Positions 24,530 through 42,724 of a DNA stretch of 64,000 nucleotides are shown here, in pieces (position 1 is the first letter of the stretch; every line of letters begins with the position of its first letter). Below the pieces are notes generated by a model. That model ran no database searches. It was not told the DNA's origin and saw only the letters and a list, made by a program, of their open reading frames with translations. Source of the DNA: Thermodesulfovibrionales bacterium (GTDB lineage Bacteria > Nitrospirota > Thermodesulfovibrionia > Thermodesulfovibrionales > SM23-35); contig CAVQRT010000007.1 of the NCBI GenBank assembly GCA_963715195.1, positions 288,001 to 352,000 of the forward strand, in the 5' to 3' direction. The translations under genes and the position numbers were made by a program.

Positions 24530-25810
24530 ATGGAACACGTATATATCGACCGGCCGTATGATATGAGGAGACATGAGCGGACGCCATCCGCACAACCGAT
24601 TCATTACCTGGTCAGCATGATCGAAGCAAAAAACCGGACGTGGCTCTCCTGTAAAGGCCAGCTTCTCGATATCAGTGAAGCAGGGATCTGTATTCAGACC
24701 AATCATCCGCTCTCTCCAGGCAACATTGTATGGTTTAATGGAACCTCAGAAGAAAAGGCAGGTTTTGTCCGATGGTGCCGCCGGCTTGACAGCACATACA
24801 AGATCGGCATTGAGCTGGATAAAACCCATATCAGGAAGCTCGACGAGGCGACCGATACATTCATGAAAACTCTGAAACAGATCGAGGAACAGTGCTCGGA
24901 TCATGCAGAAAATCCTGATGAGATATTACGCAAGGTCCAGCAAGCAGTCGACGGTGTCTGCATTGCCTGCGAGACTTTCGAGAAAGAGATCGGGGACAAG
25001 GACGTCATTCGTGATTCGCAGGTCAGGTTTCGCGAAAAAACCAATTCCATCCTCTCAAAAAGCTATTGCATAAACCGGGCCCGTACCTGGCCGCAGGGCT
25101 ACCAGGGCGATTACAAGACCCTTGAAGGCATATACCGGAACACCCCCCTTTCAGAGGGAATCGGCTACTATCTTGATCTGTGGGGCTTGAATGTTTCCCT
25201 TGCCGCAGCCGTGAGGAACAGGATAAAGAAACTCGAAACGCTCTTGCGGGATGAACTCCGGCAGAGGATGTTTCCGTCCGTCATGAACATCGCCTGCGGT
25301 TCGTGCAGGGAAGTTTTCGAATTGGCCACTGACATAGCAAAATCAGGCGCCAGATTTACCTGTATTGATCTGGACGACGATGCGCTCGCCTTTTCCGCAA
25401 ACCGTCTGTCGTTTACTCCCATCTCACCCCTGACGTCCGATCAGGTGGTGATGAGGAAATACAATGCGGTGAGGATGTTCGATCACGAGCTGAACCTGCA
25501 GGAATTCGGTATGCAGGATATCATTTACAGTGTTGGTTTTTTTGATTATCTGCCGACCGATTTTCTTATCAATCTGTTCAGGTCTCTGTATGCGCTTCTC
25601 AAACCGGGAGGAAAGCTCATTGCTTCTTTCAAAGATGTCTCCCGCTACCGGTATCAGGAATATCACTGGATATTTGATTGGGATGGCTTCCTCCAGCGGA
25701 CTGAAGAGGATTTCAGACGTATCCTGTCCGATGCAGGCATGCCCGATTCTTCGATTTACGAAACACGCGAAGAATCAGGGGTGATCGTCTTCTACATAGC
25801 TACGAAATAG
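24530..25810 (+). CDS. PilZ domain fused to class I SAM methyltransferase (PhcB-like)
   Basis: PilZ motifs RRHER and DISEAG; WPQGYQGDY, AVRNR, NIACGSCRE, CIDLD, YSVGFFDYL, LLKPGG. Confidence 0.85.
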   Translation: MEHVYIDRPYDMRRHERTPSAQPIHYLVSMIEAKNRTWLSCKGQLLDISEAGICIQTNHPLSPGNIVWFNGTSEEKAGFVRWCRRLDSTYKIGIELDKTHIRKLDEATDTFMKTLKQIEEQCSDHAENPDEILRKVQQAVDGVCIACETFEKEIGDKDVIRDSQVRFREKTNSILSKSYCINRARTWPQGYQGDYKTLEGIYRNTPLSEGIGYYLDLWGLNVSLAAAVRNRIKKLETLLRDELRQRMFPSVMNIACGSCREVFELATDIAKSGARFTCIDLDDDALAFSANRLSFTPISPLTSDQVVMRKYNAVRMFDHELNLQEFGMQDIIYSVGFFDYLPTDFLINLFRSLYALLKPGGKLIASFKDVSRYRYQEYHWIFDWDGFLQRTEEDFRRILSDAGMPDSSIYETREESGVIVFYIATK

Positions 25811-25823
25811 ACCGGAATGCACT

Positions 25824-27056
25824 ATGGGTAAGAACATCGTTATCACCGGCATCGGCATCGTATCACCCGTTGGAACGGGAAGAAACAATTACTGGGATGC
25901 CATCTTTCAGGGAAAATCCGGGTTCAGGCCGATAACCGTCTTTGATGCTTCATCGTTCACGGTATCTCTTGCCGGTGAGATACCTGACTTTGATCCTATT
26001 ACTTTTCTCGGCAAAAAAGGATTGCGGGAACTCGACCGGAGCACAAGACTTCTTACTGTTGCGGCAAAGCTCGCCCTCGAAGATAGCACGCTCGTGATAA
26101 CAGACGAGAACGCTCCTTTTACCGGAGTCGCAATCGGAACCACATTCGGAAGCCTCCATAGTATCTTTCAGTTCGACCGTGTAGGCCTCACCGATGGTCC
26201 CCGCTTGGTTAACCCGTCACACTTCCCGAACACGGTTATCAATTCTCCTGCAAGCAGGGTTTCTATACGCTTCGGATTAAAAGGATTTAACACCACCATA
26301 TCGACAGGATTCTGTGCAGGCATCGACGCTGTTTCCTATGCATCTGATTTTATCAGATTAAACAGGGCTGACATCGTTTTGACCGGTGGTGTCGAAGAAT
26401 TGTGTGAGGAGACCTTTATGGGTTTTTCCAGGCTCGGATATCTGTCGGGGTCGGATCATTCAGACCCACTCTGCTGCCCTTTTGATGGTCGAAGAAACGG
26501 AACAATACTTTCCGAAGGTGCCGGAGTTATTGTCCTTGAAGATGAAGATCATGCCGTAAAGAGAGGTGTTTCTATTCTAGCAAAAATAGCAGGCTACGGA
26601 AATGCCTTTGATCCGTCAGCAGACAAGGGTTTCAGCCATACAGGGTCAGGATTAAAGAAGGCGATTGCATATGCTCTGAAAGAATCCTCTCTCACCACTC
26701 GCGATATTCAGTATATCTCTGCCAGTGCCAATTCAACACCAGGCTTAGACAGGATGGAAACAGAGATAATTAAAGCCGTGTTTGGTGAACGGGCTTTCTC
26801 CATCCCGGTTAGTTCTATCAAATCAATGGTCGGTGAGACGTTCTCCGCCTCCGGTGCATTCGCTGTAGCTGCAGCAGTCGGTGCGATACAGCATGGGATT
26901 ATTCCACCGACGGTAAATTACCGTGAAAAAGATCCCTCATGCGACCTCGATTACGTTCCAAACAAGGCAAGGGCATCAGAGATAAAACACGTTCTTGTCA
27001 TATCGTCTGATCCGTATGGAAACAACTCTGCAATTATTGTAGGGAAATATGAGTAA
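25824..27056 (+). CDS. Ketosynthase-fold protein lacking the catalytic triad (chain-length-factor-like)
   Basis: IVITGIG, PFDGRRNG.ILSEG present; STGFCAG, SASANST and GETFSASG replace the Cys/His/His motifs. Confidence 0.9.
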   Translation: MGKNIVITGIGIVSPVGTGRNNYWDAIFQGKSGFRPITVFDASSFTVSLAGEIPDFDPITFLGKKGLRELDRSTRLLTVAAKLALEDSTLVITDENAPFTGVAIGTTFGSLHSIFQFDRVGLTDGPRLVNPSHFPNTVINSPASRVSIRFGLKGFNTTISTGFCAGIDAVSYASDFIRLNRADIVLTGGVEELCEETFMGFSRLGYLSGSDHSDPLCCPFDGRRNGTILSEGAGVIVLEDEDHAVKRGVSILAKIAGYGNAFDPSADKGFSHTGSGLKKAIAYALKESSLTTRDIQYISASANSTPGLDRMETEIIKAVFGERAFSIPVSSIKSMVGETFSASGAFAVAAAVGAIQHGIIPPTVNYREKDPSCDLDYVPNKARASEIKHVLVISSDPYGNNSAIIVGKYE

Positions 27057-27099
27057 ATAGTGTTAAGGATTTTTAATACAGGCAGTTCACGGAGAGGTA

Positions 27100-27537
27100 A
27101 TGATGGAACTTGATTTTGAACAGATTAAAAAAGTCATACCGCAGCGGTTTCCTTTCATCATGATCGACAGAGTCATCAATGTGAATCCGGGGAAAGAAGC
27201 CACAGCAATAAAAAATGTATCAGGAAATGACATATTTTTTCTCGGCCATTTCCCTGAGAAAGCGATCATGCCGGGCGTTGCCCTGATCGAGGCAATGGCC
27301 CAGACAGCCATTATTCTGTTCGGTGCAGGAGAAAATGCAGCCTCAGGAGATACTCTCTATTTTCTCGGTTCGGTCAAGGCACGCTTTTATCATCCGGTAG
27401 TGCCGGGTGACTGCATGACAATCAAAGCGGTCAACGTAAAATCCCTGCCCTCTGGTGCATATGTGACAGCCGAAGCAACGGTCGATGACAGGAAAGTATC
27501 AGAGGCAGAACTTGTCTTCAGTGTGAAAAATGAATAA
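27100..27537 (+). CDS. FabZ-like 3-hydroxyacyl-ACP dehydratase
   Basis: PQRFPFIMIDRV, GHFPEKAIMPGVALIEAMAQ. Confidence 0.93.
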   Translation: MMELDFEQIKKVIPQRFPFIMIDRVINVNPGKEATAIKNVSGNDIFFLGHFPEKAIMPGVALIEAMAQTAIILFGAGENAASGDTLYFLGSVKARFYHPVVPGDCMTIKAVNVKSLPSGAYVTAEATVDDRKVSEAELVFSVKNE

Positions 27538-28744
27538 GCGTGTTGTCATAACGGGTCTGGGTGCTGTTTCCTCAATCGGTATCGGATGGGAATCATTCTG
27601 GGACAGTCTTGTAGCAGGCAGGTCGGGTATCAGCGATGTTACCTCATTTGATACATCCGGCCATTTTACCCACAAGGGCGGCGAGATCAAAATCTTCATT
27701 CCCGATGAGTTTATACCTCCGGACAAGCTGAACATACTCAGCCGTTCTTCCCAGTTTGCTGTTGCGGCCGCACACCTTGCGGTCCGCGATGCACACCTCT
27801 CACCCGACGAGCTCTCAGCTATTACTGCTGGCATCTGCATCGGTACGACCATGGGTTCGGTGCAGACTTCAGAGATTATCAACCAGATGATCGTCCTGCA
27901 GGGCAAAACTGATTTCAGCAATGATCTGATTTGCCAGGTGCCGACACACTCAACTCCAGCAGCGGTTGCACGGGAGTTCGGCATTACAGGGCCCAATCTG
28001 ATGTTCTCCACCGCCTGTTCGGCGGGCAATTATGCAATCGGATACGGTTTAGACCTCATTCGGCTTGGGAAGACTGATGTTATTCTTGCGGGAGGATCGG
28101 ATCCTTTTTCAAAGGTGGCTTTTACCGGATTCAACCAGTTCGGTGCAGTGGCTCCTGAAAAATGTCAGCCCTTTGATAAAAATCGCAAAGGCATGATGGT
28201 TGCAGAAGGTGCGGGCATGCTTATCATCGAATCTCTTGATCATGCACTCACGCGCAATGCCCCCATATATGCCGAAATCGCAGGGTACGGGTTGAGCTGC
28301 GATGCACACCATATGACGCTCCCCTCTGTTGAAGGCGTCTCACGCTGCATGATGCAGGCTTTGCGGGAAACCAGAATCACGACCGAACAGGTTGATTACA
28401 TCTGTGCCCACGGCACGGGCACCCCCGCAAACGACAGGGCAGAGTGTGCGGCGATACGGAATGTTTTCGGCTCCCGTACAAAGGACGTGCCGGTCAGTTC
28501 AATAAAATCCATGATCGGTCATACCATGGGAGCGGCATCTGCACTCGAAGCTATCTCATGTGCCCTCACGGTAAAAAACAACATAATCCCGCCAACAATA
28601 AATTATGAGACGCCTGATCCGGAATGCGATATCGATTGCGTTCCAAATCAGGCACGCGGGCATGAAGTGAATATTGCCTTGAATAATTCCTATGCGTTCG
28701 GAGGAAATAATGCATCACTGATATTGCGGAAATATATCCCATGA
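27530..28744 (+). CDS. FabF-like beta-ketoacyl-ACP synthase (active)
   Basis: STACSAG, AHGTGT, KSMIGHTMGA, NSYAFGGNNA. Confidence 0.96.
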   Translation: MNKRVVITGLGAVSSIGIGWESFWDSLVAGRSGISDVTSFDTSGHFTHKGGEIKIFIPDEFIPPDKLNILSRSSQFAVAAAHLAVRDAHLSPDELSAITAGICIGTTMGSVQTSEIINQMIVLQGKTDFSNDLICQVPTHSTPAAVAREFGITGPNLMFSTACSAGNYAIGYGLDLIRLGKTDVILAGGSDPFSKVAFTGFNQFGAVAPEKCQPFDKNRKGMMVAEGAGMLIIESLDHALTRNAPIYAEIAGYGLSCDAHHMTLPSVEGVSRCMMQALRETRITTEQVDYICAHGTGTPANDRAECAAIRNVFGSRTKDVPVSSIKSMIGHTMGAASALEAISCALTVKNNIIPPTINYETPDPECDIDCVPNQARGHEVNIALNNSYAFGGNNASLILRKYIP

Positions 28745-28759
28745 AGGAGGCCGTGAAAA

Positions 28760-29029
28760 ATGAAAGAAAACACCCTCGAAAAGGAAATCATCTCTATTAT
28801 TGCAGACGTTTCAGGATTTGATCCCGGGGAGATTACGCCAGAAGCCAAATTGGCCGATGATCTCGAAATTGATTCAATTAAAGCAATCGAGATCGTTGTT
28901 GCGATCGAAAAGAAATACAAGGTTTCGGTTCGGGATGAAGATGTCCCGAAGATTACCACTGTCAGCGAGACCGTAGCAGTCGTCCACAAGCTCCTGAATC
29001 AGGAACTCGCAACGAATGTCAGGAACTGA
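28760..29029 (+). CDS. Acyl carrier protein
   Basis: Acidic 89 aa with DDLEIDSIKAIEI phosphopantetheinylation motif. Confidence 0.94.
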   Translation: MKENTLEKEIISIIADVSGFDPGEITPEAKLADDLEIDSIKAIEIVVAIEKKYKVSVRDEDVPKITTVSETVAVVHKLLNQELATNVRN

Positions 29030-30452
29030 TCGCCCCTCATATGATGCCGTTATTATTGGTTCAGGGATAAGCGGGCTGATATGCGGAAGCTACCTTGCAA
29101 AGGCCGGACTGAAGGTGCTCATTGCAGAGCAGCATCATCAGCCGGGGGGATACTGTACATCGTTTGTGAGAAAGGGCATCACCTTTGATGCTGCTGCACA
29201 TTCGTTTGGCGGGTACAGGGAGAACGGTATCATCCGGAAGGTTTTCAATGATTTCCGCCTGAATGACAACGTGGCCGTTACAAGGTATGACCCAACGGAC
29301 GTAGTCGTATCACCTGACTCTGAAATCTCCCTGTGGTCTGATCTCGAAAGAACGATTGCAGATCTCGGATCCTCATTTCCGGACGAACAGGATAATTTCA
29401 GGAAATTTGCGAGCTTTTTGCTGAAGCCCGATCCTCAGTCGTTTGCCGGCATGCGGCGCTGGACCTTCAAAGACCTGCTCGACCACTATTTTCGGAACGA
29501 TAAACTCAAATCCATGCTCTCTTTCCCGATTTTCGGAAATGGTGCCCTCCCCCCTGCTCGCATGTCTGCTTTCATCGGTGCCAAGATATTCACTGAATTT
29601 ATTCTCGATGGCGGATATTACCCTGAAGGCGGAATGCAGAGGCTTTCAAATGCCCTCGCAGAGAGTTTTCAGCATTTCGGCGGGGAATTGTTATTGTCCT
29701 GTCCTGTCAGCAAAATTATCATAAAAAATGGTGGGGCAGCCGGTATAGTCATCGGAGGCAAGATGCCCGTCAGTGCAGGGTCGGTTGTCTCGAATTGCGA
29801 CGCAAGACAGACATTTCTCAGAATGATCGGCAAAAAACACCTTCCCCTTGAGTTCATGAACAAGCTTAATCGGATGCAGCCGTCACTCTCCATGTTCGTC
29901 CTCTATCTTGGTCTGGATCAGGAATTTGAGAACACACTGCATGCCGGTTCGAATATCTGGTATCTCTCTCATTATGATCTGGAGAAAATGTACCGGTCCG
30001 CTGCACGTCGCTCACCGTCCTCGATTGATGAGTGCATGGTGCGCATCTCTCCTGACCGAAAAAGCCTGCTGGCCTTTACAAATACCTCTTTCAGAAACAG
30101 GGCATTTTGGTCCGACAGCAAATCAAAATTTATCGATGGGTTCATAGCACGACTCTCACGCATCATGCCGGGTATTTCACAGCACATTCTTTACAAGGAC
30201 GCAGCAACCCCTTCCACTATGGACCGTTACACGTCAAATTATCGCGGAGCTGCATACGGATGGGAGAGCACCACCGCCCAGCTTGCCGATCCTGATTTCA
30301 GGAGACCTTCTTTCATTCGTCACTTATACCTGACCGGTCATTGGTCGACACAAGGTCTCGGCATTCCGGGTGTTGCATATCTTGGATATGATACCGCGAC
30401 ATCAGTTCTTAAAAGAAGAAAAGCCTCTCTTTCACAATCTTCTCCTGAATAA
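29016..30452 (+). CDS. Phytoene desaturase (CrtI)-family FAD oxidoreductase
   Basis: YDAVIIGSGISGL..EQHHQPGGY, YYPEGGMQ, ATPSTMDRYT..GAAYG, LYLTGHW. Confidence 0.9.
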   Translation: MSGTDRPSYDAVIIGSGISGLICGSYLAKAGLKVLIAEQHHQPGGYCTSFVRKGITFDAAAHSFGGYRENGIIRKVFNDFRLNDNVAVTRYDPTDVVVSPDSEISLWSDLERTIADLGSSFPDEQDNFRKFASFLLKPDPQSFAGMRRWTFKDLLDHYFRNDKLKSMLSFPIFGNGALPPARMSAFIGAKIFTEFILDGGYYPEGGMQRLSNALAESFQHFGGELLLSCPVSKIIIKNGGAAGIVIGGKMPVSAGSVVSNCDARQTFLRMIGKKHLPLEFMNKLNRMQPSLSMFVLYLGLDQEFENTLHAGSNIWYLSHYDLEKMYRSAARRSPSSIDECMVRISPDRKSLLAFTNTSFRNRAFWSDSKSKFIDGFIARLSRIMPGISQHILYKDAATPSTMDRYTSNYRGAAYGWESTTAQLADPDFRRPSFIRHLYLTGHWSTQGLGIPGVAYLGYDTATSVLKRRKASLSQSSPE

Positions 30453-37393: not shown

Positions 37394-38674
37394 CTATTTG
37401 GTATGAGTTGCCCTCATCGTTGCAGCCAGTTCCCTGATCTCACCGAGATCCTTCACCATCATCGCCCACCCATACCAATAGGCATAATCAGGGTTTACAT
37501 GGAATAAGGCCTGATATGCCCTCATCCGGTGTTTCATATACATCTGAAACAATACCTGGTCGATAAAGGAAAGTTTTTTCATATCGCCGCCTCCGGTCTG
37601 CATGAAATACAGGAAATCAGGATACGCGAAGGCGTAATTGTCAGGCTTTTTGATAATACCGTCTTTATAGAGCCCTGCAACAATTTCGATCGCCTCAGCA
37701 AGAAGACGGTCGGTCTTCATCATCATAGTGTCAGCCATATTCAATTGCTCACGGGCATAAGGCTCCGAGTGGCAAGTGCTGCATACCTTTATCATCTTTT
37801 CACGTTCGGTCTTCCATGCCTCTTCTGTAAGGCGCACCATATCGACAGCCTTCACTGCGTCAAGACGAGCAGTTGGTTGTCCTGTTTCAGGATTTAAAAC
37901 ACCCAGCGCCTTCAGAATTATGATCCTGTCCGCCTTCCATTGAGGGTCTTCAGGCAACGGAAGCCGGACACCAAGGAACCCCCAGGCCGTTCTGTTTTCA
38001 TGAGAGCCGGTGGGCATATGGCAATCCTGGCATTTCGGTGCAGTAGCCTCACCCGGAAGATTCTTAGAATCCCGTATAAACCAGCGGGTCCCGTGCTTGG
38101 CGCTGCTCCACATCTCCCATTGAGGATGATCATACCCCATATGGCACTGCTGACATGCCCGCGGGTCTGATGCCTCCTTCTTTGAAAAAGTATGCCTGGT
38201 ATGACATTCATCGCACGAATTCATTTGGTATCTGTATCCTTTATCCCGTTGTTCCTTTTTCTGTGCTTCGGTTTTTATGCCCATATTATGGCAACCACCG
38301 CAGCCTTTGCCGCCTTCCATCAGTTCATCCGGCTCGACATGGGTAATCGGGAGGGCATTCATCGAAATCCACCCAAAATTGTGTTTGCCTTTTCCAAATT
38401 CGCTAAATTGTTTTGCATGACATTGACCGCAGACCTTTTCATCAGGCATTTGGGCAAGGTTAGCATTCTGGGCGCTATTGTGATTATTCCCATGGCATGT
38501 TGAACAGGTAACGTTCACTGCACTGTGTTTGCTTATCTTCCAGTCTTTGACCTGCCCAGGTGATAACTTTTGATGACACGAAACACAGGAATTCTCTTCA
38601 GCATATGACGCGCTCATCAGTACAAATACAATGAAGAAAAAGATACAAGACAGCATTACCATACTTCTTTTCAT
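37394..38674 (-). CDS. Octaheme cytochrome c, hydroxylamine oxidoreductase (HAO) family
   Basis: Signal peptide; eight CxxCH (CVSCH, CSTCH, CGQCH, CGGCH, CDECH, CQQCH, CQDCH, CSTCH); CHTRHTFS, CHMGYDHPQWE, FHVNPDY. Confidence 0.9.
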   Translation of the reverse strand: MKRSMVMLSCIFFFIVFVLMSASYAEENSCVSCHQKLSPGQVKDWKISKHSAVNVTCSTCHGNNHNSAQNANLAQMPDEKVCGQCHAKQFSEFGKGKHNFGWISMNALPITHVEPDELMEGGKGCGGCHNMGIKTEAQKKEQRDKGYRYQMNSCDECHTRHTFSKKEASDPRACQQCHMGYDHPQWEMWSSAKHGTRWFIRDSKNLPGEATAPKCQDCHMPTGSHENRTAWGFLGVRLPLPEDPQWKADRIIILKALGVLNPETGQPTARLDAVKAVDMVRLTEEAWKTEREKMIKVCSTCHSEPYAREQLNMADTMMMKTDRLLAEAIEIVAGLYKDGIIKKPDNYAFAYPDFLYFMQTGGGDMKKLSFIDQVLFQMYMKHRMRAYQALFHVNPDYAYWYGWAMMVKDLGEIRELAATMRATHTK

Positions 38675-38849: not shown

Positions 38850-38936
38850 GCCGAAGTGGCGGAATTGGTAGACGCAAGGGACTTAAAATCCCTCGTGGGC
38901 AACCGCGTACCGGTTCGAGTCCGGTCTTCGGCACCA
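38850..38936 (+). tRNA. tRNA-Leu(TAA), class II, CCA encoded
   Basis: GCCGAAG/CTTCGGC acceptor stem, GGTAGAC D-loop, AGGGA-CTTAAAA-TCCCT anticodon arm, long variable arm, GGTTCGAGTCC. Confidence 0.97.
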
Positions 38937-39671
38937 ATACTATCAAGTGTTGGTGAGGTGCAAGGGATTTTAATATAATTTATGAGACATGTATTGCTAA
39001 CAGTTTTACACCAGTCGGCTTCATAATTGGAATGGGTATAACGGTTTATACGTGGCATGTCCGAAAGCGAAGCACAAACACGACCTAAGTTAGCGTCCTG
39101 AGTCCTGATAGCGCCGCAAATCGAAGAACATTCACTTCATGCTTATCTGCCGGTTGGTGCTCATTCTCACAGTAGTCGATAAAAACATCAATTTTCGATA
39201 TCTGTTTAATTCCCATTCTACTGAACAGGACTTAGAAAATCAGGGGCGTCACTTTCCATTTGAATGATGCATGGCAAGAAGCTGACGGGTTATTCAATCC
39301 GAAAAGAAATAAACGATTTCCAGAAAAGTGTGGCAAGAAAGAATAACATTGTGACTCGATTTGAACAGTCAACCTATTAACACGCAGAAACAAGAAAGGA
39401 TGGAAACGAAAGATTTTGGTTACAAATAAGCAGATAACAGTTTTGGCACAGCAAAAGAGAGCAGGGTCTTCACTTCCTTCTCCTCTTCTTAGTTCGGAAA
39501 ATTAAGAAAAAAAGCAAAACCAAAATAAAAAAAACGATTTCAGCAGAGTGATTTTTTAGAATGTTAAGTACAAAGTCCATATTTGGATTTTTAGCAAATT
39601 ATAGGTGGAAATCACTCGCTATAGCAGTTGTCGCAGTCTGCAGAATTATACAGACTGTTAAAATACCTTTT

Positions 39672-40842
39672 TCATTGCACTACCCCCCTCAACAGCCTAT
39701 AACTGTAATATGTCTCCGCATTATACACATGCCAGTTATTGTATTGGTCACCATAGATAAACCACTCTGTCGGCTGAGTAGCGTACAGAGTTTCACACAT
39801 CTCTGCCTGATTGCACATTTCATAACAGATGCCCGTATTCTCAGCAGGGCAACATGAGGTATCGTAAGGTTCTACATCTATGAGGATTATTCCCCAGCCT
39901 ATTTTCATGTACCAGTAAGGCCTTGCATACATATCGCCTGTGCAATAAACCTCAATACCGATTTCTTCTGCTGTGCAGGGATTAGATTCTGTGCAATCAC
40001 CACACCGTAACACTCTCGCTTGGTCAGGACAGCAATCAATCGGTTCAGGTTCAGGCGTAGACATGAGTTGGTTCAGGTGTAAGTTCGGGAGTTGGTTCAG
40101 GTGTAGGTTCGGGAGTTGGTTCAGGTGTAGGTTCGGGAGTTGGTTCAGGTGTAGGTTCGGGAGTTGTCACACAAGCTTTGTTGCTATGAGTAGACTCATT
40201 GCCAGCAGCATCATAAGCCGTTACCGTATAACAGTATTGAGTGCCTGGATTTAAACCATCAAAATATGTTGAAGTTCCGGTTTCGGATTTTTGATATGTT
40301 CCATCCCCGCAATAAATCCTATATCCGACAACTCCAGTATTATCTGTGCCAGCAGTCCAAGAGAGGTTAATCAGACCTGATGTAACGGCTGTTGCTGTTA
40401 GTGCTGACTCATATGGCGGAACCCCGTCTTGTAATATGTTTAGATAAACAACACAGTTTCCGTTGCTTGTCAATGTATATTTGAATTTTACATAACCTTC
40501 AATAAAATTATCCTTAGGTATCACAATTGGAACAAAATGAGATTTGTTTTCCAATAACCCCTCATGAAAAAAATAACCGTTATGCTTCATAGAGGTTTTA
40601 TAATTTTTTAAATCAACAGAAGGCAGAGTAACCATTAAATTCCATGCTAATTTCTTAGGTTTGCTGTATGCATATATGCTTTCAAAATAAACCAACTCCC
40701 CTGCAATTGCTGAATTGATAGTATCGCCCTCTTCATTAATAATTCGACATTCCATTGCACAAAGGTCGGAAACCCAAAGGAATAGATATACCACTAAAGA
40801 TACGAATAGTATTTTTCTTTTCATTGGACATTTCCATGACAT
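39672..40842 (-). pseudogene. Secreted FN3-domain protein with PEPT linker and Cys-rich C-terminus, apparently split by a frameshift near 40065 (or two coupled ORFs)
   Basis: Signal peptide, LSWTAGTDNTGVVGYRIY...YTVTAYDAAGNES, (TPEP)n; the TPEPEP motif resumes in another frame. Confidence 0.65.
40065..40166. repeat. 24-bp tandem repeat x4.25 encoding PEPTPEPT
   Basis: gagttggttcaggtgtaggttcgg units at 40065, 40089, 40113, 40137. Confidence 0.95.
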
Positions 40843-41154
40843 AGCAATCCTCCTTGATAATTCAGACTAAGTGTACCCTTCAGGTCTTTGACCGAAAATT
40901 TATCTGAGAATAATTAAACATTTCTCCTTCAATGTTGCCTAACTTCAGAAGATATTAATGTGAGGACCATCACAAAACATCTTAGAATAATTAGGAACAG
41001 ATCCGAAGAGAGATATAAATCCTAACCTGAGTGGAGATAAACGACGACTCACGTTGATTACGGTATGAAATGCTGTATTCATAAGATAATCGAAAGGATC
41101 ATAGAGAGGAAGAACGAGACAGGGCAAGCTTCATCAAAGCAAAGATGCGCGTTG

Positions 41155-41568
41155 CTAAGTCCTTCCGTTTGAAAGAACAATTTTCAAAACAAGCCTGAAA
41201 ACCAGATAAGCTACCAGTAACCATATTAAGACTATAATTAATGCTGCAAGCCATTTTGTTTTGCCACCAATAGGAGTAGATTGAGCTTTTTCTCTACATT
41301 CTTCTATAACTTCTTTTGGGATGATTTTAAGTGATAGATAAATTCCCGCAGGTATAATGATTAAATCATCAAGATATCCTAAAACGGGTATGAAATCTGG
41401 AATCAAATCAATAGGGCTTAATGCATAAGCTACAACGATAGCAACGAAGACCTTCGCATACCAAGGAACTCTTGGATCTTTATAGGCTAAATAAAGGGCA
41501 TGTGTATCTGTTTTAAGTTGTCTTGCTTTTTCTTTTAATGATGCCATCCGCATATTATCAATTACCAT
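41155..41568 (-). CDS. YkvA/DUF1232 family membrane protein
   Basis: DPRVPWYAK, YALSPIDLIPDFIPVLGYLDD; exact start uncertain. Confidence 0.92.
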   Translation of the reverse strand: MVIDNMRMASLKEKARQLKTDTHALYLAYKDPRVPWYAKVFVAIVVAYALSPIDLIPDFIPVLGYLDDLIIIPAGIYLSLKIIPKEVIEECREKAQSTPIGGKTKWLAALIIVLIWLLVAYLVFRLVLKIVLSNGRT

Positions 41569-41668
41569 TGATATTCTGCAGCATTATATAAGGTTTAAGG
41601 GAGGAGTATTTCAGGAAGGATGCTTGCTTCTTGGGATTCTTTGGATTTGCGGGTTCAGTGCTCGTATT

Positions 41669-42724
41669 TCAGTCCTTGAGTTGTTTTTTTGCCGATTTGA
41701 TGAAACGTCCAAAAGCTCTGTCTTTCTTCCGCTTGTCCAGGTATGACATCTCGTAGTATTCCGATTCTTTCTTCAGCTTCATATAGCTGGCATACCGATC
41801 TTCGGTCAGATCTCCTCTTTCAACCGCGGCTCGGACGGCACAGCCAGGCTCGTGTTCGTGGCTACAATTTGCGTAGCGACAATTGGCCGAAAGCCCAACG
41901 AGGTCCTCAAAACCTCTATTCACCCCATCATTGGCTCCAACAAGGCCTAGTTCTCGCATGCCAGGGGTATCAATTAGCATCGCACCTTGGGCAAGTACGA
42001 TAAGCTGCCGGCGTGAAGTCGCATGGGTCCCTTCCCCCGTACCGCTGACGTTCTTTGTATCTAAGACGTCCTTTCCTATGAGACGGTTGATGAGAGTTGT
42101 CTTCCCTACACCAGAGGAACCAAGCAGACAGAACGTCTTCCCTGGGGAGAGGGTCTCTTGAAACACGTCAAACCCGATACCGGTAATGTTGCTGAGACCG
42201 AGCGCTTTGGCTTTGGTGACAGAGGACACGATCGCAAGTTTCTGCTTCAATTCATCACTGGTAATCAGATCGGTCTTCGTCAGAATGACAATCGGTTCCA
42301 CATGCCCATCCGCTGCCATTACCAGGTAGCGGTCCAAACGTCGCGGATTGAAGTCAAAATGGCATGACTGGACAATGAAAGCCGTATCTATGTTGGCTGC
42401 AATCATCTGGAAGTCGACGATTTCACCCGCTGCTTTACGGCGTAAGAATGTCTTTCGCGGAAATACTCGGTGGATGATTGCTGCTGCACCATCGTTGTAG
42501 TATTGTGCCAGCACCCAATCTCCGACACACGGCAAGTCAACGGAATTCTCGGTCTCGTAAGAGAGCTTCCCCGAGAGTTCGGCAGGGACTTCTTTTGATT
42601 CATTCCTTATCAGATACGAACCGCGGTCAACTGCCGATACACGAGCTATAGTGCGGTCGTCCTCGTGCAACGGAGTAATATGCGCTTCAAACCATTGGTC
42701 AAAGCCTAGGTCGATCAATTTCAT
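41669..42724 (-). CDS. rsgA: Ribosome small subunit-dependent GTPase A
   Basis: Circularly permuted GTPase: TKTD, GSSGVGKT, DTPGMRE, CRYANCSHEHEPGC. Confidence 0.94.
   Translation of the reverse strand: MKLIDLGFDQWFEAHITPLHEDDRTIARVSAVDRGSYLIRNESKEVPAELSGKLSYETENSVDLPCVGDWVLAQYYNDGAAAIIHRVFPRKTFLRRKAAGEIVDFQMIAANIDTAFIVQSCHFDFNPRRLDRYLVMAADGHVEPIVILTKTDLITSDELKQKLAIVSSVTKAKALGLSNITGIGFDVFQETLSPGKTFCLLGSSGVGKTTLINRLIGKDVLDTKNVSGTGEGTHATSRRQLIVLAQGAMLIDTPGMRELGLVGANDGVNRGFEDLVGLSANCRYANCSHEHEPGCAVRAAVERGDLTEDRYASYMKLKKESEYYEMSYLDKRKKDRAFGRFIKSAKKQLKD

Follow-up and report, generated by a model that had tools for sequence, protein, structure and literature searches.

A Nitrospirota operon pairing a PhcB-like methyltransferase with an anammox Cluster I-type acyl cassette: a predicted fatty-acid methyl ester signal system

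A PhcB-family methyltransferase with its own acyl cassette

The window analysed here is a stretch of 64,000 nucleotides from a Thermodesulfovibrionales bacterium (assembly GCA_963715195.1, contig CAVQRT010000007.1, positions 288,001 to 352,000 of the forward strand). At 24530..30452 it carries a six-gene operon in which a methyltransferase distantly related to PhcB precedes a cassette of acyl-chain genes resembling those of anammox Cluster I. The system is real, conserved and uncharacterised. Our favoured reading, to which we give a probability of about 0.6, is that it encodes a Phc-type signal synthase with its own acyl supply, a ketosynthase (KS) paired with a chain-length factor (CLF), probably gated by cyclic di-GMP (c-di-GMP); a kinase encoded on another contig (C6) is predicted to sense the ester as a cell-to-cell signal. 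The predicted product of the methyltransferase and the cassette is likely a medium-chain fatty-acid methyl ester.

An earlier note, made from the sequence of the window, had described six co-oriented genes with short gaps or overlaps and without FabG, FabH or FabD. The coordinates of the open reading frames (ORFs) and the Pfam assignments agree with this: all six ORFs are genuine and lie on the plus strand, spaced in order by +13, +43, -8, +15 and -14 nt, and none encodes the three missing enzymes. The first gene (24530..25810, 426 aa, protein P0001) combines a PilZ domain, a helical linker and a PhcB-family class I S-adenosylmethionine (SAM) methyltransferase (Pfam PilZ and class I methyltransferase), the predicted signal synthase. 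It is followed by a catalytically dead, CLF-like KS of the amxFabFmut type (25824..27056, 410 aa, Pfam KS), a 3-hydroxyacyl-acyl carrier protein (ACP) dehydratase of the amxFabZ type (27100..27537, 145 aa, Pfam FabA/FabZ, H50/E64), an active KS of the amxFabF2 type (27530..28744, 404 aa, Pfam KS) and a dedicated ACP (28760..29029, 89 aa, Pfam PP-binding). The last gene (29016..30452, 478 aa) encodes an FAD oxidoreductase of the phytoene-desaturase/CrtISO superfamily (Pfam flavin amine-oxidase, NCBIfam), a putative optional tailoring enzyme that is CrtI-like yet falls under the NCBIfam crtI cut-off.

Gene order is kept across families and classes, and dN/dS against a congener is 0.05-0.12 for the five operon genes compared (all but the ACP), which argues that the arrangement is not due to chance. 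Close homologs carry the NCBI names Nitrospirota or Thermodesulfovibrionales, and the GC content of the operon equals that of its surroundings. FabG is present in 25 of the 40 complete cassettes of relatives; its absence here is therefore a lineage trait rather than a feature of the system.

Link to Phc quorum sensing

In Phc quorum sensing, 3-hydroxy fatty acid methyl esters are produced by PhcB, secreted and sensed by PhcS (PMC11298618). The link to Phc runs through a distant member of the methyltransferase family and a plasmid operon of Paraburkholderia, in which a methyltransferase is accompanied by a kinase and two response regulators. The reference loci, 80 of 329 related ones, come from Paraburkholderia, Cupriavidus, Ralstonia and others. 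Ralstonia loci carry R22 in gene 1 (7/7), L161 in gene 2 (4/7, the others having Met or a start offset) and R154 in gene 4 (7/7), the residues reported for PhcB, PhcS and PhcQ (PMC6989110). Burkholderiales (Ralstonia-group) profiles were built from 79 PhcB and 77 PhcS-sensor sequences and run against the six-frame translation of the genome. The sole match of the PhcB profile was the methyltransferase P0001 (E 5e-11), and the sole match of the PhcS-sensor profile was the C6 kinase (E 1e-9). Comparison with hhalign gave a probability of 98.7% over 246 columns for the methyltransferase against PhcB and 97.7% for the sensor against PhcS, so that the PhcB link proposed in the earlier note holds as a distant relationship.

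Many homologs of P0001 are named '3-hydroxypalmitic acid methyl ester biosynthesis protein' by JGI. The protein has no significant sequence match in the PDB. Its structure model (pLDDT 90) has three parts: a PilZ barrel, a helical bundle and a Rossmann domain. The best-scoring fold match, 3OCJ, is itself uncharacterised, and the fold neighbours, among the matches listed, are mostly small-molecule methyltransferases and include no CheR. The PilZ domain (about aa 13-100) lies ahead of the linker and displays the RxxxR and DxSxxG motifs. RxxxR occurs in 104 of the 105 PilZ-bearing homologs and both motifs are strict in 87, while 9 of 114 homolog rows, a set biased to close relatives, have no PilZ domain. 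The genome contains 20 GGDEF matches. Many orthologs of about 350 aa are devoid of PilZ, and this limits PilZ control to some lineages; the control by c-di-GMP proposed earlier would apply to part of the family only. The N-terminus of PhcB was considered as a degenerate PilZ and rejected (hhalign probability 0.4%).

The PhcS-like membrane hybrid kinase is encoded at 77156-79306 of contig C6 (L041:9157-11307), on the minus strand. It is full length (716 aa) and comprises a MASE8-like sensor, PAS, HisKA, HATPase and REC domains. The sensor is fully membrane-embedded with short loops; both it and the PhcS-type sensor score weakly on MASE8, and no plasmid match was found for the sensor domain. In most relatives the gene following the flavoprotein encodes a membrane hybrid kinase, of which the C6 kinase is the single ortholog in this genome. 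This long downstream gene of the relatives had been considered as a radical SAM gene, which was rejected because it encodes the kinase. The C6 gene lies behind a cupin gene and converges on fabH-plsX, the position at which four relatives carry the whole operon. A congener (G003) exhibits the same split between operon and kinase and the same upstream neighbour, making a real rearrangement more likely than a misassembly. The kinase is under purifying selection (dN/dS 0.11-0.14).

Kinship of the cassette with anammox Cluster I

Judged by PDB scores and key residues rather than by a tree, both KS and the FabZ are of the anammox Cluster I type, in agreement with the kinship suggested earlier. The dead KS matches 9S5H chain C with 387 bits (runner-up 293), the active KS matches 9S5H chain B with 507 bits (runner-up 6KXD, 356), and the top five matches of the FabZ are all amxFabZ entries (8AYD, 7QV0, 8AYB, 8AYI and 8AYC). 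The ACP, whose Asp38-Ser39 pair occurs in 48/48 sequences, shows no specific closeness to amxACP (7QV0_D and 7AUF, 47-48 bits; mycobacterial AcpM, 59).

Alignment of the catalytic residues supports the claim of one active and one inactive KS. The triad C163/H294/H331 of the active KS is kept in 50/50 sequences, and the corresponding Cys-His-His positions of the dead KS are F163/S301/E338. Cys164 was considered as a nucleophile of the dead KS and rejected, since it aligns one position off the nucleophile site. The anammox KS pair, which we equate with PDB 9S5H/9S5I by chain make-up, is functional only as a heterodimer; it decarboxylates malonyl-ACP, forms acetoacetyl-ACP and prefers C8 probes, and Phe135, Thr138 and Val139 of its dead subunit line the tunnel (preprint 10.64898/2026.05.19.726425). 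The equivalent residues here are F134 (kept in 57/57 sequences), T137 (55/57) and V138 (57/57). KS position 108, which we take to be the chain-length gate in FabF, is variable (L, M, T, S or F). In the FabZ, Ile71 is the equivalent of amxFabZ Ile69 and is kept in 41/43 sequences, where the housekeeping FabZ has Ala; Leu116, the hydrophobic residue at amxFabZ 115, is found in 42/43.

The flavoprotein is present in 33 of the 40 complete cassettes. The anammox PDH, of the same superfamily, is described as devoid of CrtI activity (PMC4790861). The B12 radical-SAM gene is absent from the operon, and the best match in the genome to the version of relatives reaches only 22% identity; by gene content the operon is therefore not a ladderane cluster.

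For housekeeping fatty-acid synthesis the genome has a single FabG and a FabK-like gene. The housekeeping fabF (C31:98803-100078, next to fabG and acpP) is broken up between two reading frames, either an assembly error or a pseudogene, and a second FabF-like gene is located at C7:414251-415480.

Distribution across Nitrospirota

The same 401 Nitrospirota genomes were searched with profiles of the methyltransferase, the dead KS and the sensor, and fragment rows were merged or dropped. The genome counts include kin and are not mutually independent. The methyltransferase profile matched 99 genomes, of which we counted 83 loci in 76 genomes at a score of at least 150 bits, setting 23 weaker loci apart. 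The dead KS profile matched 107 genomes; 60 were kept (at least 324 bits) and the rest dropped as ordinary FabF. The sensor profile matched 101/401 genomes.

Methyltransferase, KS and kinase occur in this order within 12 kb at 41 of the 83 methyltransferase loci, while 20 are direct methyltransferase-kinase pairs free of any cassette. A further 11 couple methyltransferase and KS but have their kinase at another place, owing to real splits or to contig breaks, two have methyltransferase and KS with no kinase found, and nine fit no class. The sensor is also present in 72 of the 76 genomes with a strong methyltransferase, and 296/401 genomes have neither. The constant partner of the methyltransferase is the kinase, not the cassette. 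Synteny with the KS/ACP genes, on which the earlier proposal depended, stands: the dead KS lies at most 3 kb downstream of the methyltransferase at 54/83 loci. An IQ-TREE phylogeny of 62 rows places the 39 cassette-bearing methyltransferases in a single clade (support 90/97, below the starred threshold) that lies within the direct pairs. It appears that the methyltransferase-kinase pair came first and gained the cassette in one insertion.

The 40 complete cassettes differ in content: 25 carry FabG, 30 FabZ, 33 the flavoprotein, five a second methyltransferase and two a radical SAM gene. The second methyltransferase, found between FabZ and KS in L024, L026, L145, L153 and L161, has a weak match to cyclopropane synthase, and the flavoprotein is missing from four of these five. 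In L147 (G019), L168 (G198) and L187 a B12-binding radical-SAM gene lies between ACP and flavoprotein, and a PhcS-like kinase closes the locus; these represent a nearly full set of the Cluster I gene types, the two genome copies being devoid of FabZ.

Where the contig extends far enough, four cassettes without a methyltransferase likewise close with membrane kinases, and the three scanned have a seven-transmembrane (7TM) sensor. This second cassette type, without methyltransferase (L034, L054, L055, L056 and L057), consists of FabG, dead KS, ACP, FabZ and KS, continues with a third KS or with an NAD-dependent reductase and a flavoprotein, and then carries a 7TM-sensor kinase and a second kinase, with an HD-domain response regulator where checked (L034). 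In family f10 (L030, L171 and L172) unrelated genes come after the methyltransferase, FabG and dead KS, and the locus includes neither the active KS nor the ACP. More distant Nitrospirota operons (L042, L043 and L044) consist of methyltransferase, kinase and regulator in a layout nearer to phcBSRQ; the L043 methyltransferase also has a PilZ domain.

Proposed working and alternative readings

The most economical reading of these genes is likely a synthase-sensor pair of the PhcB/PhcS type that gained an acyl supply of its own. Together, as a heterodimer, the active and dead KS would start acyl chains on the private ACP and lengthen them, borrowing FabD and the single FabG from housekeeping fatty-acid synthesis. 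The missing FabH would be explained if the pair, like the anammox heterodimer, decarboxylates malonyl-ACP and makes acetoacetyl-ACP. The dehydratase, if good on C6-C8 substrates and poor on longer ones, may cause chains to stall at about C10-C12 as 3-hydroxyacyl-ACP; amxFabZ barely dehydrates C10-C12 substrates (PMC10139942). Such a medium-chain 3-hydroxyacyl-ACP would be the kind of precursor that a PhcB-type enzyme turns into a methyl ester. The flavoprotein might adjust saturation or double-bond geometry, and the methyltransferase would make the ester at a rate set by c-di-GMP bound to PilZ. The ester would then partition into membranes and switch the kinase, and swapping the tailoring genes of the cassette would change the signal. 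The earlier note had left the choice between a signal and an unusual lipid; the PhcS-like kinase, encoded outside the window, favours the signal.

Several observations weigh against this reading. Pairwise identity to the Ralstonia proteins is low (23% for PhcB and likewise for PhcS), the kinase lies outside the operon in this genome, and no PhcR- or PhcQ-like response-regulator genes adjoin the operon or the C6 kinase. Among the 101 sensor genomes, 29 have no strong methyltransferase match, and 20 of the 23 weak PhcB-family matches have no PhcS-like neighbour. The anammox heterodimer showed no elongation past acetoacetyl-ACP in vitro (10.64898/2026.05.19.726425). The amxFabZ I69G variant lost activity overall (PMC10139942), so the evidence for Ile69 as a determinant of chain-length preference is not clean, and the stall model cannot apply throughout, as 10 of the 40 cassettes are devoid of FabZ. 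The idea that sensor and KS pocket co-evolved was suggestive by eye and was rejected after a formal test on 36 loci (partial rho 0.01-0.04, permutation p 0.12-0.34), in which 199 of 300 entropy-matched random position sets scored as high. The sensor correlates only slightly with the methyltransferase or with its own kinase core (rho 0.03-0.07 and 0.25-0.26 in two computations), with a value of 0.78 for the methyltransferase against the core.

A messenger confined to the cell is an unlikely alternative: the methyltransferase would turn the c-di-GMP level or the acyl-ACP status into a methylated lipid, intracellular or within the membrane, that is read by the kinase of the same cell, with no cell-to-cell role. 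The conserved PilZ motifs, the wholly membrane-embedded sensor and the hybrid kinase, which unlike PhcS carries PAS and REC, are consistent with it. However, the ester made and sensed by the nearest characterised pair is secreted (PMC11298618), and PilZ is absent from many orthologs.

It seems rather improbable that an unusual membrane lipid is built by the cassette, the role proposed for anammox Cluster I, with the methyltransferase tailoring this lipid and the kinase only regulating or monitoring the pathway. The KS, dead KS and FabZ are indeed nearest to Cluster I proteins, and the B12 radical-SAM gene beside the flavoprotein (2/40) and the second methyltransferase with its weak cyclopropane-synthase match (5/40) point in this direction. 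Yet no complete cassette includes an acyltransferase or other lipid-loading gene, the cassette sits between two genes that also pair without it, and this genome has no close ortholog of the radical-SAM gene of its relatives.

It is very doubtful that the methyltransferase modifies a protein such as the kinase as a PilZ-controlled adaptation enzyme, for which MapZ with CheR1 is a precedent, with the cassette a co-regulated passenger: the constant pairing with the kinase and CheR-domain scores in family members, weak and below cut-off, would fit, but homology is to PhcB down to the family motifs, the listed fold neighbours include no CheR, and the cassette is kept under selection across classes.

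Comparison with known systems

The Phc system (phcBSRQ of Ralstonia, Cupriavidus and Paraburkholderia; methyl 3-hydroxypalmitate and methyl 3-hydroxymyristate) shares a homologous methyltransferase core and membrane sensor domain with the present system, and its synthase-then-sensor order is also that of the relatives of this operon. It differs in that the synthase here has an N-terminal PilZ, to which the N-terminal domain of PhcB has no detectable similarity, the kinase is an unlinked PAS-HK-REC hybrid without adjacent phcR or phcQ, and a private acyl cassette is present.

Anammox Cluster I (kuste3603-3608: amxACP, amxFabZ, amxFabF2, amxFabFmut, PDH and B12 radical SAM; PDB 9S5H/9S5I and 7QV0) shares all gene types with the operon except the radical SAM, the likeness of the flavoprotein being at superfamily level, as well as the tunnel residues and the Ile69 equivalent. 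However, the nucleophile site of the dead KS is Phe here and Val or Thr in anammox, the cassette here has a PhcB-like methyltransferase and a sensor kinase as its partners, and the host is not an anammox bacterium.

Highly reducing type II polyketide synthases (ishigamide Iga11/Iga12 and aryl polyene ApeO/ApeC) likewise combine an active KS and a full-length inactive partner with an ACP and a dehydratase. Their representative 6KXD is second to the anammox structure for the active KS (356 vs 507 bits), and the ishigamide KS is the nearest structure to amxFabF2 (10.64898/2026.05.19.726425). They differ from the operon, which has no adenylation, nonribosomal peptide synthetase or acyltransferase genes for loading or release. 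The system likely works in a Phc-like manner with Cluster I-type enzymes but lacks one defining feature of each family.

Prior description and significance

No published description of this system was found, as judged from search listings, with most subscription journals outside the search. Cluster I is said to occur exclusively in ladderane producers (PMC10139942; 10.64898/2026.05.19.726425). Rattray et al. (PMC2649909) describe clusters of this broad kind as rare, not unique. Close relatives of the Cluster I dead KS occur in 60/401 Nitrospirota genomes, mostly between PhcB-like and PhcS-like genes, which weakens the uniqueness argument tying Cluster I to ladderanes. Tentatively, the operon may belong to an undescribed Nitrospirota family of fatty-acid-ester cell-to-cell signals with a dedicated KS/CLF synthase, swappable tailoring genes (reductase, dehydratase, flavoprotein, second methyltransferase and radical SAM) and, in some lineages, c-di-GMP gating at the synthase. 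The 'ladderane' Cluster I core might then be a general cassette for specialised acyl chains, and the first product that can be demonstrated for it may be a signal rather than a membrane lipid.

If so, Phc-type signalling, characterised in Burkholderiales, would extend to anaerobic sediment bacteria and gain a signal synthase that has a c-di-GMP receptor domain in the same protein. The same enzymes would be available with a predicted end product that is likely volatile and visible by gas chromatography-mass spectrometry, and the natural variants in gene content could reveal the roles of the PDH-like flavoprotein and the radical SAM enzyme.

Other features of the window

The operon is preceded by nfeD and an SPFH gene and followed by a convergent PLD-family gene that overlaps it by 21 nt. 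Promoter and terminator counts are at the level of shuffled sequence. In one RNA-library run, short near-identical contigs cover the methyltransferase and the dead KS at a depth of 3-4; DNA carry-over is possible, and they are not counted as evidence.

At 37394-38674 the minus strand encodes a multiheme cytochrome, presumably hydroxylamine-oxidoreductase-like, which matches the 'seven times multi-haem' Pfam family and contains eight CxxCH motifs. The Rfam scan identified a single tRNA and no other RNA. At 38850-42000 a tRNA gene is followed by a fall in GC content to about 0.39, possibly marking an integrated element.

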